The notes beneath the pieces are model-generated. The model saw only the letters and a list, made by a program, of their open reading frames with translations, was not told where the DNA came from and did not search any database. Positions 1,201 through 11,181 of a stretch of DNA of 64,000 nucleotides are shown here, piece by piece. Origin of the DNA: Escherichia phage vB_EcoM_G2133; sequence record MK327928.1; one strand, given 5' to 3'. The position numbers and the translations under genes are program-made. Position 1 is the stretch's first letter; each line of letters begins with the position of its first letter.

Positions 1201-3180
1201 ATGACTTTATTATCTCCGGGCATTGAGCTCAAAGAAACTACGGTTCAAAGCACCGTGGTTAATAACTCTACTGGTACAGCAGCTTTGGCCGGTAAATTCC
1301 AGTGGGGTCCTGCTTTTCAGATTAAACAGGTTACAAATGAAGTAGATTTAGTTAATACTTTTGGTCAACCAACCGCTGAAACTGCTGACTATTTTATGTC
1401 TGCGATGAATTTCTTGCAGTACGGAAATGACTTACGAGTAGTTCGTGCTGTTGATAGAGATACCGCTAAAAACTCATCGCCAATTGCTGGTAATATTGAA
1501 TACACAATTTCTACCCCAGGTAGTAACTACGCGGTTGGAGATAAAATCACGGTCAAATATGTTTCAGATGATATTGAAACTGAAGGTAAAATTACTGAAG
1601 TAGACGCAGATGGAAAAATTAAGAAAATTAATATTCCTACTGCAAAAATTATCGCTAAAGCGAAAGAAGTCGGTGAATATCCAGCACTAGGTTCTAACTG
1701 GACTGCGGAAATTTCTTCGTCTTCCTCTGGTTTAGCTGCAGTAATAACTCTTGGAAAAATTATTACTGATTCTGGTATTTTATTAGCTGAAATTGAAAAT
1801 GCTGAAGCTGCTATGACAGCGGTTGACTTTCAAGCAAGTCTCGAAAAATACGGAATTCCAGGAGTAGTAGCTCTTTATCCAGGCGAATTAGGCGATAAAA
1901 TTGAAATTGAAATCGTATCTAAAGCTGACTACGCAAAAGGGGCTTCTGCATTACTCCCAATTTATCCGGGCGGTGGTACTCGCGCATCTACTGCTAAAGC
2001 AGTGTTTGGATATGGACCACAAACTGATTCACAGTACGCTATTATAGTTCGTCGTAATGATGCTATTGTTCAAAGCGTTGTTCTTTCGACTAAGCGTGGT
2101 GAAAAAGATATTTACGATAGTAACATCTATATCGATGACTTTTTCGCAAAAGGCGGCTCAGAATATATTTTTGCAACTGCACAAAACTGGCCAGAAGGCT
2201 TCTCTGGAATTTTAACTCTGTCTGGTGGATTATCATCAAATGCTGAAGTAACAGCAGGAGATTTGATGGAAGCTTGGGACTTCTTTGCTGACCGTGAATC
2301 TGTTGACGTTCAACTGTTTATTGCGGGTTCTTGTGCCGGTGAATCTTTAGAAACAGCATCTACTGTCCAAAAACACGTCGTTTCAATTGGGGATGCTCGC
2401 CAAGATTGCTTAGTATTGTGCTCACCGCCGCGCGAAACTGTAGTTGGAATTCCTGTAACTCGCGCTGTTGATAACTTAGTCAATTGGAGAACTGCAGCAG
2501 GTTCATACACTGATAATAACTTTAATATCAGTTCAACCTATGCAGCAATTGATGGTAACTATAAGTATCAGTATGACAAATATAATGATGTGAATCGTTG
2601 GGTTCCATTAGCAGCTGATATTGCTGGTTTATGCGCAAGAACTGATAACGTATCTCAGACTTGGATGTCTCCAGCTGGTTATAATCGTGGTCAGATTCTT
2701 AACGTTATTAAACTGGCTATTGAAACTCGCCAGGCTCAGCGCGACCGTTTATACCAAGAAGCTATCAACCCAGTAACTGGTACAGGTGGTGATGGTTACG
2801 TATTGTATGGTGATAAAACAGCTACTTCTGTTCCTTCTCCATTTGATCGTATTAACGTTCGTCGTCTGTTTAATATGTTGAAAACTAATATCGGACGTAG
2901 TTCAAAATATCGTTTGTTCGAATTAAACAACGCGTTTACTCGTTCATCATTCCGCACAGAAACTGCCCAGTACTTGCAGGGAATTAAAGCTCTCGGTGGA
3001 ATTTATGAATATCGTGTAGTTTGCGATACAACAAATAATACTCCGTCAGTAATTGATAGAAATGAGTTTGTTGCAACATTCTACATCCAACCGGCTCGTA
3101 GTATAAATTATATCCAACTTAATTTCGTCGCAACTGCTACTGGTGCAGATTTTGATGAGTTAACTGGTCTTGCAGGTTAA
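1201..3180 (+). CDS. 18: tail sheath protein
   Basis: 659 aa, same length as T4 gp18; N-terminus MTLLSPGIELKETTVQSTVVNNSTG; position after gene 17. Confidence 0.95.
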   Translation: MTLLSPGIELKETTVQSTVVNNSTGTAALAGKFQWGPAFQIKQVTNEVDLVNTFGQPTAETADYFMSAMNFLQYGNDLRVVRAVDRDTAKNSSPIAGNIEYTISTPGSNYAVGDKITVKYVSDDIETEGKITEVDADGKIKKINIPTAKIIAKAKEVGEYPALGSNWTAEISSSSSGLAAVITLGKIITDSGILLAEIENAEAAMTAVDFQASLEKYGIPGVVALYPGELGDKIEIEIVSKADYAKGASALLPIYPGGGTRASTAKAVFGYGPQTDSQYAIIVRRNDAIVQSVVLSTKRGEKDIYDSNIYIDDFFAKGGSEYIFATAQNWPEGFSGILTLSGGLSSNAEVTAGDLMEAWDFFADRESVDVQLFIAGSCAGESLETASTVQKHVVSIGDARQDCLVLCSPPRETVVGIPVTRAVDNLVNWRTAAGSYTDNNFNISSTYAAIDGNYKYQYDKYNDVNRWVPLAADIAGLCARTDNVSQTWMSPAGYNRGQILNVIKLAIETRQAQRDRLYQEAINPVTGTGGDGYVLYGDKTATSVPSPFDRINVRRLFNMLKTNIGRSSKYRLFELNNAFTRSSFRTETAQYLQGIKALGGIYEYRVVCDTTNNTPSVIDRNEFVATFYIQPARSINYIQLNFVATATGADFDELTGLAG

Positions 3181-3186
3181 TTGATT

Positions 3187-3825
3187 ATGGGGCTTCGGCC
3201 CCTATTCTCGAGGAAACAAGTGATTATTTCTAAGTTTGTTACAATAAAACCAAGAAATCATTCAAAAATGTGGTCGACAATTCTGGGATATAAAGTATCA
3301 TATCATGATACAGTATCTGTTCCAATAGAATTAATGCCAAAGAATAGTAATAAAATAGTTGACGCTAAATGTGATTTGTGTGGTATTAAATTTAGTAGAA
3401 GCATTCAGCTTTTAAATAGAACACCCACGCATGCATGTAGAAAATGTAGCATTAAACAAGTTGCTATTAAAAATTCGGAAGTTCAATCTGGAATAAGTAG
3501 ACCATGGCAAAGAGGTGATAAACATCCTCGATGGACTGGTAAAAGAAAAGAGTTTGCATTATATGCTAGTAGAGTTCATTCTATAACTAAGTCAGCTAAA
3601 ATAAGAAAAATCTGGTCAAAATGGCCAAATGCTGATAAAATAGGAGTGTGTGGTGTAGAAGGTGCTTACCAACTTGATCATAAGGTATCTATCAAATATG
3701 GATTTGATAATTTAATTCCGCCGGAAATTATAGCAAGCGTAAAAAATTTAGAAATAATCACTTGGGAATCTAACCGAGAAAAGTCAAAAAGAAATAGCGT
3801 AGATCTTTGGGATTTACTAGAATGA
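3187..3825 (+). CDS. HNH-family homing endonuclease (free-standing), zinc-finger containing
   Basis: ORF 3181..3825; paired CxxC motifs (CDLCGIKF, HACRKCS) and HNH-like motif QLDHKVSIKYGFDN...NLEIITWESNREKSKRN; track start 3181 is TTG; in-frame ATG at 3187 and 3268, GTG at 3220 preceded by GAGG; start uncertain. Confidence 0.7.
   Translation: MGLRPLFSRKQVIISKFVTIKPRNHSKMWSTILGYKVSYHDTVSVPIELMPKNSNKIVDAKCDLCGIKFSRSIQLLNRTPTHACRKCSIKQVAIKNSEVQSGISRPWQRGDKHPRWTGKRKEFALYASRVHSITKSAKIRKIWSKWPNADKIGVCGVEGAYQLDHKVSIKYGFDNLIPPEIIASVKNLEIITWESNREKSKRNSVDLWDLLE
3189..3202 (+). promoter_or_regulatory. RNA stem-loop GGGGCUUCGGCCCC (UUCG tetraloop) at 3' end of gene 18 / 5' end of HNH ORF
   Basis: perfect 5-bp GC stem with CUUCGG loop, 9 nt after gene 18 stop; the same 14-mer recurs at 12778, 34118 and 62998 in transcript sense. 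Confidence 0.55.
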
Positions 3826-3832
3826 TTCTAAA

Positions 3833-3850
3833 GGCCTGTTTCGGCAGGCC
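3833..3850 (+). terminator. stem-loop after HNH ORF
   Basis: GGCCTG-tttcgg-CAGGCC hairpin 8 nt after HNH stop; no strong U-tract, so terminator function uncertain. Confidence 0.4.
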
Positions 3851-3851
3851 A

Positions 3852-3859
3852 TATAAATA
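3852..3859 (+). promoter_or_regulatory. late promoter box TATAAATA (distal, upstream of gene 19)
   Basis: exact TATAAATA immediately after the 3833 hairpin. Confidence 0.5.
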
Positions 3860-3910
3860 CACTATATCCTTAATTCTTTAATTCTATATGCCCTAGGTTA
3901 AACATAGGGA

Positions 3911-3918
3911 TATAAATA
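3911..3918 (+). promoter_or_regulatory. late promoter box TATAAATA (proximal, gene 19)
   Basis: exact TATAAATA 15 nt upstream of gene 19 ATG, after a small CCCTA/TAGGG hairpin. Confidence 0.6.
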
Positions 3919-3932
3919 CTACAGAGGCTAAT

Positions 3933-4424
3933 ATGTTTGTAGATGATGTAACACGAGCGTTTGAATCTGGTGATTTTGCTCGACCTAACTTATTCCAAGT
4001 AGAAATTTCTTATCTTGGACAAAATTTTACGTTTCAATGTAAAGCCACTGCTTTACCAGCTGGTATTGTAGAAAAAATTCCAGTCGGATTTATGAACCGT
4101 AAAATTAACGTAGCAGGCGATCGTACATTCGATGACTGGACTGTTACAGTAATGAACGATGAAGCTCATGATGCTCGCCAGAAGTTCGTTGATTGGCAAA
4201 GCATTGCTGCGGGGCAAGGAAACGAAATTACTGGTGGAAAACCTGCAGAGTATAAAAAGAGCGCTATCGTTCGTCAATATGCTCGTGACGCTAAAACAGT
4301 AACAAAAGAAATTGAAATTAAAGGTCTGTGGCCTACTAACGTGGGTGAACTTCAATTAGATTGGGATTCAAACAATGAAATCCAAACATTTGAAGTAACT
4401 CTTGCTCTCGATTATTGGGAATAA
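3933..4424 (+). CDS. 19: tail tube protein
   Basis: 163 aa, same length as T4 gp19; MFVDDVTRAFESGDFARPNLFQVEISYLG. Confidence 0.95.
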   Translation: MFVDDVTRAFESGDFARPNLFQVEISYLGQNFTFQCKATALPAGIVEKIPVGFMNRKINVAGDRTFDDWTVTVMNDEAHDARQKFVDWQSIAAGQGNEITGGKPAEYKKSAIVRQYARDAKTVTKEIEIKGLWPTNVGELQLDWDSNNEIQTFEVTLALDYWE

Positions 4425-4431
4425 AATGAAT

Positions 4432-4445
4432 GGGGAGAAATCCCC
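4432..4445 (+). terminator. stem-loop GGGGA-gaaa-TCCCC after gene 19
   Basis: GC-rich hairpin 8 nt after gene 19 stop. Confidence 0.4.
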
Positions 4446-4456
4446 ATCCTGCTTAA

Positions 4457-6081
<1,625 letters not shown>

Positions 6082-9853: not shown

Positions 9854-9862
9854 TTTTTATGG

Positions 9863-9870
9863 TATAAATA
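9863..9870 (+). promoter_or_regulatory. late promoter box TATAAATA for gene 24
   Basis: exact TATAAATA 27 nt upstream of gene 24 ATG. Confidence 0.6.
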
Positions 9871-9897
9871 AATCATATAAACCAAAAGGAAAGCGCA

Positions 9898-11181
9898 ATG
9901 GCTAAAATCAACGAACTTCTGCGCGAATCAACCACAACGAATAGCAACTCAATCGGTCGCCCAAATCTCGTTGCTTTGACTCGCGCTACCACTAAATTAA
10001 TATATTCTGACATTGTAGCAACGCAAAGAACTAATCAACCTGTTGCTGCTTTTTATGGTATCAAATACCTTAACCCAGACAACGAATTTACATTTAAAAC
10101 TGGTGCTACTTACGCTGGCGAAGCTGGATATGTAGACCGAGAACAAATCACAGAATTAACAGAAGAGTCTAAATTAACTCTCAATAAAGGCGATTTATTC
10201 AAATATAATAATATCGTTTATAAAGTATTAGAAGATACTCCATTCGCTGATATTGAAGAAAGCGACTTAGAGTTAGCTCTTCAGATTGCAATTGTTCTTT
10301 TAAAGGTTCGTCTATTTTCTGACGCAGCGTCAACAAGCAAATTTGAAAGCTCTGATAGTGAAATTGCGGATGCTAGATTTCAGATTAATAAATGGCAAAC
10401 CGCGGTTAAATCTCGTAAACTTAAAACTGGCATCACAGTTGAATTAGCGCAAGATTTAGAAGCAAATGGATTCGATGCTCCTAATTTCTTGGAAGATTTG
10501 CTTGCAACTGAAATGGCAGATGAAATCAATAAAGATATTCTGCAGTCTTTGATTACAGTGTCAAAACGCTATAAAGTTACAGGAATTACTGATAGTGGAT
10601 TCATCGATTTGAGTTATGCATCTGCACCTGAAGCGGGTCGTTCATTATATCGAATGGTATGTGAAATGGTTTCGCATATCCAAAAAGAATCAACTTATAC
10701 AGCAACGTTCTGTGTTGCTTCAGCTCGTGCCGCTGCGATTCTTGCTGCATCAGGTTGGTTAAAATATAAACCAGAAGATGATAAATATCTTTCACAAAAT
10801 GCCTACGGGTTCTTAGCTAATGGTTTACCGCTTTATTGCGATACTAACAGCCCATTAGATTATGTAATCGTTGGTGTAGTAGAAAATATCGGTGAAAAAG
10901 AAATTGTTGGATCAATTTTCTATGCTCCGTATACAGAAGGTCTTGACTTAGATGACCCTGAACATGTAGGTGCATTTAAAGTTGTTGTTGATCCAGAAAG
11001 CTTACAACCGTCTATCGGTTTATTAGTTAGATATGCTTTATCAGCAAATCCTTATACCGTAGCAAAAGATGAAAAAGAAGCAAGAATAATTGATGGTGGA
11101 GACATGGATAAAATGGCGGGTCGTTCAGATTTGTCTGTTTTATTAGGTGTTAAATTACCAAAAATTATTATTGATGAATAA
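9898..11181 (+). CDS. 24: capsid vertex protein
   Basis: 427 aa as in T4 gp24; recognisable similarity to gp23 fold region; synteny. Confidence 0.93.
   Translation: MAKINELLRESTTTNSNSIGRPNLVALTRATTKLIYSDIVATQRTNQPVAAFYGIKYLNPDNEFTFKTGATYAGEAGYVDREQITELTEESKLTLNKGDLFKYNNIVYKVLEDTPFADIEESDLELALQIAIVLLKVRLFSDAASTSKFESSDSEIADARFQINKWQTAVKSRKLKTGITVELAQDLEANGFDAPNFLEDLLATEMADEINKDILQSLITVSKRYKVTGITDSGFIDLSYASAPEAGRSLYRMVCEMVSHIQKESTYTATFCVASARAAAILAASGWLKYKPEDDKYLSQNAYGFLANGLPLYCDTNSPLDYVIVGVVENIGEKEIVGSIFYAPYTEGLDLDDPEHVGAFKVVVDPESLQPSIGLLVRYALSANPYTVAKDEKEARIIDGGDMDKMAGRSDLSVLLGVKLPKIIIDE

Follow-up and report, generated by a model that had tools for sequence, protein, structure and literature searches.

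In Escherichia phage vB_EcoM_G2133, the tail sheath gene (gene 18) and the tail tube gene (gene 19) are separated by an open reading frame (ORF) that, judged by its sequence, is ORF19.1 of phage T6. We conclude that this ORF, together with a hairpin and a ribosome-binding site (RBS), probably forms a free-standing, promoter-less cassette of the homing-endonuclease type, placed between the gene 18 stop codon and the gene 19 region. The stretch of DNA analysed here, hereafter the window, comprises 64,000 nucleotides of sequence record MK327928.1. Homing-like spread of ORF19.1 is supported indirectly by islands of sequence divergence in the adjoining part of gene 18. Its transcription by read-through, its nuclease activity, its target site and its active homing we only infer.

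The window represents a T6-like Tequatrovirus, 99.2% identical to its closest record (Escherichia phage vB_Eco_CP) and 98.5% identical to T6. From its left end the gene order is the 3' part of gene 17, gene 18 (1201-3180), ORF19.1 (3220-3825), gene 19 (3933-4424), and gene 20. Genes 18 and 19, both on the + strand, were placed using the ORF list together with annotated T-even matches and relatives. The 3' end of gene 18 is the conserved left flank of the insert, and gene 19 its right flank. T6 ORF19.1 has been on deposit since the 1990s; its record is 97.7% identical to the window over 1.5 kb and has the same 606-nt coding sequence (CDS) at the same site, with no substantive difference between the two ORFs. 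The depositors marked a GTG start and left the function blank, and to their record we add analyses of fold, motif, distribution and flanking tracts. Public product names for ORF19.1 range from 'putative head morphogenesis protein' (T6, AP018814), 'holin' and 'type II restriction endonuclease' to 'homing endonuclease' and 'HNH endonuclease'. One 'other HNH' gene, possibly but not certainly ORF19.1, is listed for T6 by Petrov et al. (PMC2993671, Table 5).

A first-pass annotation of this DNA had taken genes 18 and 19 to be adjacent in T4 and proposed an insertion between them. Both points were borne out. In T2 and in a T4 variant the two genes are neighbours, 116 nt apart. Alignment of the window with T2, the T4 variant and RB7 (alignment A1), with 14 Tequatrovirus junctions compared besides, delimited an inserted cassette of ~644 bp at 3181-3824 (+ strand; borders ambiguous by 1-2 nt), in place of the 8-bp TACGGTGC found in empty alleles. 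The empty junction in A1 has the layout TAA-TACGGTGC-ATTCTAAAGGCCTGTTTCGGCAGGCC-ATATAAATA...TATAAATA...ATG, and native sequence at the right border completes the TGA stop of ORF19.1 (3823-3825), the final A being common to both. Outside the cassette, the flanks of empty and occupied alleles are 96-99% identical. The 18-19 region was matched by 695 phage records, 116 of which covered at least 80% of the query and were scored as occupied. Within Tequatrovirus the insertion is optional, being present in ~116 of ~520 records, and the ORF is not universal at this site, as ~400 records (including T4 and T2) are empty.

Two types of allele occupy the site. The T6-type ORF was identified by tblastn in 69 records with at least 95% identity, and an RB7-type, domain-swapped allele in ~47 more. 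The hairpin and Shine-Dalgarno sequence upstream of the ORF are largely identical in the two types, as are the last ~155 nt of the ORF (70-100% identity per 30-nt block), and its first ~30 nt are ~80% identical (24/30). The middle, which encodes the zinc finger, is only ~50% identical. ORF19.1 is modular, combining a predicted nuclease with a presumed DNA-binding part, and its N-terminal module has been exchanged between the T6-type and RB7-type alleles. Copies are rarely partial, 232 of 238 covering at least 80% of the query. Scans of IMG/VR and of metagenomes with gp19 gave 15 loci each, too few for a phylogeny-aware association test.

The sole sequence common to every insertion context is a C-terminal block of the sheath protein gp18, ...PARSINYITLNFVATATGADFDEL..., which, like the C-terminal motif PARSINYI(T)LNFVATATGADFDEL, was conserved in 40 of the 40 loci compared. 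Between 100 and 40 nt before the gene 18 stop codon (3081-3140, + strand) lies an island of divergence. Here 6-15 positions per 60 nt set the window apart from empty alleles, compared with 0-5 per 200 nt at -600 to -100, and Tequatrovirus carriers differ from one another at 0-1 positions across -100 to -40. The island includes ATC CAA CTT at 3112-3120, which changes Thr to Gln (Thr639Gln) in the ITLNF motif of gp18. By these comparisons the island is a candidate co-conversion tract or target/immunity site.

Haplotype counts tied this tract to the ORF. With a chimeric megablast query, 68 records had both the ATC-CAA-CTT haplotype and the T6-type ORF, 21 had the haplotype alone, and among the records listed the ORF was always accompanied by the haplotype. 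In most RB7-type carriers gene 18 is of the common T2-like haplotype (43 records with both, ~65 with the haplotype alone, ~5 with the ORF alone). A similar tract was found outside Tequatrovirus. Carrier VR7 and an empty locus (L023) are 99-100% identical in genes 18 and 19 save for the final ~160 nt of gene 18, with a drop to 78% at -120 to -30. Another carrier, L022, is otherwise more divergent and has the gene 18 tract of VR7 from about -97. Of 27 empty loci, 24 retain the Thr codon of ITLNF, whereas 7 of 13 carriers, drawn from four lineages, encode Gln, Val or Ser there. A single-nucleotide polymorphism separating carriers from empty loci was also sought in 14 loci and discarded, none being fully diagnostic, with three empty loci showing the carrier haplotype. 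Taken together, the gene 18 patterns fit co-conversion, and possibly target-site immunity, within ~100 bp of the stop codon.

The locus of L022 (IMGVR_UViG_2706795394, 2107-2961) merits a separate remark. The 3' tract of its gene 18 is that of VR7, and its ORF is ~33% identical to T6 ORF19.1, compared with 60% for the ORF of VR7. Possibly a new ORF took the place of an older one here and left the flank as it was.

We next consider the protein. The HNH assignment made in the first pass had relied on two CxxC pairs and an HNH-like motif, and both are present: CDLC (3370-3381) and CRKC (3436-3447), followed by DH...N...N with D153/H154 at 3676-3681, N176 at 3745-3747 and N185 at 3772-3774. The Cys4 pairs fall in an N-terminal domain (~aa 1-95; 3220-3504, + strand), presumed to be a zinc-finger DNA-binding and specificity module, with weak similarity to DUF4379 (treble-clef; PF14311). 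The DH...N...N residues fall in a C-terminal HNH-like (beta-beta-alpha-metal) domain (3532-3822, + strand). An AlphaFold2 (AF2) model of the full-length protein (predicted local distance difference test score, pLDDT, 86) shows two domains joined by a low-confidence linker, and the C-terminal domain was modelled with a pLDDT of 87 and a predicted template modelling score of 0.76. In the model, a beta-hairpin is followed by a helix, as is characteristic of the HNH superfamily, in the order YQLDH, LEIIT, WESNRE, with D153-H154, N176 and N185 at the expected H-N-N positions. In this superfamily the catalytic His, mostly with Asp or His before it, ends the first strand, and is joined by an Asn ahead of the second strand and by an Asn or His of the helix. 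The same four residues form the sole invariant columns across 143 diverse relatives and are also invariant in 27 close ones. The best structural matches were 4h9d and 5h0o, which are phage HNH nicking enzymes and not homing enzymes. Identity as an HNH-type protein was therefore supported by structure and motif but not by profile search; because Pfam HNH models do not match, its support is structural and motif-based, and since no Foldseek match in the PDB was significant, the structural part is moderate. With moderate confidence, then, we predict the C-terminal domain to be a nuclease of the HNH/beta-beta-alpha-metal, H-N-N type.

Searches with profiles placed the protein in a large family. Its best PHROG match was phrog_5104 ('unknown function'; 5e-82), other endonuclease PHROGs being marginal (E value 8e-4 or weaker) and confined to the zinc-finger region. 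Pfam HNH_4 was marginal among relatives, matching 1 of 27 at 0.078 and 2 of 143 at 3.5e-4. A nuclease-domain profile searched against 1.84 billion representatives gave 1,332 matches with E values of 1e-10 or lower, and the top 150 were nearly all single, full-length matches at protein C-termini. On these relatives the N-terminal modules include DUF7487, several helix-turn-helix (HTH) types, NUMOD3, DUF4379 and TnsD. The total of 3,991 matches is an upper bound that includes leucine-rich-repeat (LRR) false positives. The nuclease-domain segment IIASVKNLEIITWESNR (3742-3780), with the pattern IGxIxNLxxIPWxxN, mimics such a repeat and attracts LRR proteins, among them PDB entries 4u06 and 4u08 and a 3,759-aa protein with 11 such stretches (P0136), so that profile match counts are inflated. 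The LRR matches in the PDB, which align with this segment, we dismissed as a false lead. Finally, three T6-type alleles differ at 11 synonymous sites and 1 non-synonymous site, which shows ORF19.1 to be a maintained protein-coding gene.

The frame between genes 18 and 19 is open from 3181 to 3825 on the + strand and comprises, when counted from TTG 3181, the 214 codons given in the first pass. Comparison of homologues places the start further downstream. At the position of GTG 3220, (M/V)IISK opens 27 of 27 aligned homologues, the upstream extensions proposed by gene callers are unrelated to one another, and the alignment to PHROG 5104 begins at residue 14 of the 214-aa reading. A Shine-Dalgarno GAGG, read from the sequence at 3210-3213 (+ strand), lies 6 nt 5' of this GTG and is kept in the RB7-type allele. 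On this sequence evidence the translation start of ORF19.1 is GTG 3220, giving a CDS of 201 aa (3220-3825, + strand). Public records carry three different starts (212, 201 and 185 aa), and we recommend annotation of the GTG 3220 start.

The corrected start also changes the reading of the hairpin. The GGGGCTTCGGCCCC stem-loop is indeed present at 3189-3202 (+ strand; predicted -10.8 kcal/mol), with a C(UUCG)G tetraloop, between the gene 18 stop codon and the RBS of ORF19.1. However, the idea that it buries the start arose from a mis-assigned start codon. With translation from GTG 3220 behind GAGG 3210-3213, the hairpin is intergenic, lies 5' of the RBS and buries nothing; its predicted extension reaches only the first Shine-Dalgarno bases. 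It is absent from empty alleles and constitutes a second UUCG hairpin, added 5' by the cassette. A role as an intrinsic terminator was rejected because no T run follows it and a terminator scan made no call. The native hairpin, with a U(UUCG)G loop (3833-3850, + strand; predicted -12.8 kcal/mol), is identical in T2, T4 and RB7 and directly follows gene 18 in empty alleles.

Downstream of the ORF, exact matches to the late-promoter box TATAAATA occur at 3852-3859 and 3911-3918 (both + strand), where the first pass had located them, the second lying 14 nt before the gene 19 ATG. Exact boxes number 19 in the window, against 8.6 expected by chance. It had been suggested that the insertion kept or duplicated the gene 19 promoter. 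Since both boxes and the U(UUCG)G hairpin 5' of them are found base for base in insert-free T4 and T2, they are native: kept, but not duplicated. In annotation, the two boxes should be assigned to gene 19 rather than to the insert, together with the downstream hairpin.

The interval from gene 18 to ORF19.1 contains no exact late-promoter box, in agreement with the earlier remark that the gene has none of its own. A separate promoter was considered and rejected, only boxes with 1 mismatch having been found; the core of a MotA box (TGCTT) is absent from 2800-3230. The closest of the 1-mismatch boxes, TATAAATT, occupies 3102-3109 within gene 18 and precedes GTG 3220 by 111 nt; it is also in empty T2 and missing in T4. 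With no exact late box of its own, expression of ORF19.1 by read-through from gene 18 is plausible. There is precedent in T4, where seven free-standing endonuclease genes are promoter-less cassettes relying on upstream promoters (PMC2988022).

Under the homing-type reading, events could run as follows. Late transcripts begun at the gene 18 promoter at 1165 would read through the non-terminating UUCG hairpin into ORF19.1, and low-level translation would begin at the GTG. In a mixed infection, a related phage that lacks the ORF would have its DNA nicked or cut by the protein in the final ~100 bp of gene 18. Recombinational repair would then carry ORF19.1 and the adjoining 100-160 bp of gene 18 into the recipient.

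Homologues outside T6-type Tequatrovirus directly follow the sheath gene in all cases where context was inspected. Full-length homologues were found after gene 18 in VR7 (Gaprivervirus; 'gp19.1'), Klebsiella Roth78, Dhakavirus PSD9 and Bp7, Acinetobacter Melin, Citrobacter Ci1, and Sinorhizobium phiM12, the last having a gene other than gene 19 after the homologue. Aeromonas AS-zj has a partly related ORF at the same position, matching only part of the protein. A strong hairpin precedes every homologue in other genera, and VR7, Melin and Bp7 also have TATAAATA there. Within Dhakavirus, a ~125-nt spacer element (TCTATTATCCCAGGCTG...) is downstream of the ORF in PSD9 (L006, 3122-3328) and upstream of a different homologue in Bp7 (L008, 2320-2500). 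As these divergent homologues lie on opposite sides of the spacer, they represent separate insertion events. In Acinetobacter phage 133 (L011, 1570-3647), an 822-nt ORF divides rnlA into rnlA-A and rnlA-B. Its last ~58 residues are 47% identical to the ORF19.1 nuclease domain, nothing else is shared, and its annotation reads 'some similarity to ORF19.1 of T6'.

Several points weigh against a homing-type endonuclease cassette. The searchable literature yielded no cleavage, transcript or protein data for ORF19.1, and the name gp19.1/ORF19.1 retrieved Candida papers only. The window protein matched no Pfam HNH model at E values up to 1, NCBIfam gave nothing, profile searches of the PDB with three alignments (A2, A3, A5) gave only zinc fingers or LRR noise, and Foldseek against the PDB gave nothing significant. 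The carrier records are phylogenetically related, so the counts above are not independent. The 21 haplotype-only genomes are empty despite the T6-type gene 18 haplotype, and RB7-type carriers have no carrier-specific gene 18 haplotype. Ordinary recombination could have produced the flanking islands as it brought in the cassette, with no nuclease action, and sites only 60-100 nt apart are expected to be linked anyway. That homologues so distant in sequence keep strictly to the site after gene 18 might also be due to vertical descent with recurrent losses, or to a useful function. In such an alternative, ORF19.1 would encode an accessory protein, domesticated or beneficial, which could be either a nuclease or a DNA-binding protein. 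The gene would descend mostly by vertical transmission, be lost repeatedly, and move now and then by ordinary recombination rather than through cutting by its product; the phage might profit because the protein keeps out competing relatives, acts on the DNA of host or phage, or adjusts the expression of genes 18 and 19. We consider this unlikely, although it would accommodate a position right after gene 18 in every genus checked (to ~35% identity), the nearly uniform full length of the copies, strong purifying selection, the lack of a private gene 18 haplotype in RB7-type carriers, and best structural matches to nicking enzymes. It is harder to reconcile with the lack of ORF19.1 in ~78% of Tequatrovirus genomes (T4 and T2 among them), or with two alleles of ~50% amino acid identity at one site between flanks that are 97% identical. 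The varying insertion points within Dhakavirus and the carrier-specific gene 18 tracts common to otherwise divergent carriers also argue against it, as do nuclease-domain relatives fused to NUMOD3 and HTH modules, one of which splits rnlA.

The remaining explanations are less likely still. ORF19.1 might be an inactive or decaying passenger: once an endonuclease gene, it would have lost its cutting activity and would now simply be carried along between two essential tail genes. Its lack of a promoter, its weak GTG start and its escape from curated HNH models would suit such a relic. However, the excess of synonymous over non-synonymous allele differences, the invariance of the catalytic-type residues in 143 relatives, and the absence of frameshifted or truncated copies among the Tequatrovirus matches listed make this improbable. 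We give very little credence to the arrangement first proposed, with a start at TTG 3181 or ATG 3187 inside the hairpin and a gene 19 late promoter duplicated by the insertion. Both start codons do exist in frame, AGG lies 10 nt 5' of ATG 3187, and gene callers often pick this ATG (P0001, 212 aa). Yet the 13 upstream codons are unconserved: other genera are unrelated there, most having ATG at the MIISK position, and two close alleles (L032 and L033) have GTG in place of ATG 3187. The PHROG 5104 alignment and the presence of both TATAAATA boxes in empty T2 and T4 likewise count against it.

Beyond the homing-type cassette itself, the data allow a broader proposal, which we offer tentatively as a possibility that we rather doubt. 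ORF19.1 may belong to an unrecognised family of H-N-N nucleases missed by every curated model, one lineage of which may have kept to one target throughout the T4 superfamily, from coliphages to Sinorhizobium phiM12: the ultra-conserved coding block ...SINYITLNF... at the 3' end of gene 18. Such a lineage would persist by repeated re-invasion and would exchange its zinc-finger specificity module between alleles. It would also drive the recurrent change of Thr to Gln, Val or Ser at one codon of the essential gp18, and this change would confer self-immunity.

If active, ORF19.1 would be a further homing nuclease of T-even phages, one directed at their essential tail sheath/tube module, and it could account for a bias in how tail-gene markers are inherited when T6 is crossed with T2 or T4. 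Its relatives, hundreds to thousands of clusters, have an HNH-like domain that curated models miss, so they are routinely annotated as hypothetical.

Other endonuclease genes and records were noted in passing. The late structural module of the window contains another free-standing endonuclease gene, segD, a homing endonuclease gene at ~9857-10333 on the minus strand, antisense between genes 23 and 24 as in T4 (coordinates taken over from the PP01 annotation, locus L044). In Bp7 (L008, 3769-5630), genes 19 and 20 are separated by another annotated HNH endonuclease gene, the second in this region, and the portal gene 20 is annotated as two pieces (4408-4731; 4737 onward), giving a tail/portal module with at least two endonuclease-type inserts. 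Records H12, H200 and H202 (Pseudomonas phage PsgM02F, Pseudomonas phage vB_PSGBLB0006) are ~99% identical to the coliphage region, which suggests a mislabelled host or a contaminant Tequatrovirus.

Among known systems, the closest structural matches differ from ORF19.1 in context. Gme HNH (4h9d) and GVE2 HNH (5h0o) are single-domain enzymes tied to the terminase genes of cos-type phages. In contrast, ORF19.1 is two-domain and optional. Hef enzymes, like ORF19.1, are encoded by free-standing endonuclease genes of T4-related phages, and the Hef-like gene of LIMEstone1 adjoins the tail tube gene, a location that led us to consider a Hef-like identity. Hef belongs to the Vsr-like (EDxHD) family (PMC3239194), and we therefore excluded this identity; ORF19.1 gave no Vsr-type structural match and has the DH...N...N motif instead.

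The arrangement around the RBS also has counterparts. In I-TevI, segB and Aeh1 mobE, a hairpin sequesters the RBS and a late promoter bypasses the hairpin (PMC2988022). Unlike these, ORF19.1 has no exact late box between hairpin and ORF, although its homologues in VR7, Melin and Bp7 do. A nearer likeness is seg43(25), which has a very stable hairpin immediately 5' of an RBS that it does not sequester (PMC2988022), as does ORF19.1 at 3189-3202.

The T4 enzymes MobA-E (e.g. MobE, PMC2790892) differ from ORF19.1 in several respects. A PHROG scan revealed no sequence similarity (the match being phrog_5104, not Mob), with no direct pairwise comparison to MobE made, and the nuclease domain of ORF19.1 is C-terminal, behind a zinc finger, and unmatched by Pfam HNH. 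Both are nonetheless small free-standing genes inserted between conserved genes, promoter-less cassettes on an upstream transcript, sporadic among T-even phages, and of HNH type (as predicted for ORF19.1). The finding is real and the ORF already on record: ORF19.1 is an uncharacterised example of a kind of element to be expected, without surprise, in T4-like genomes.

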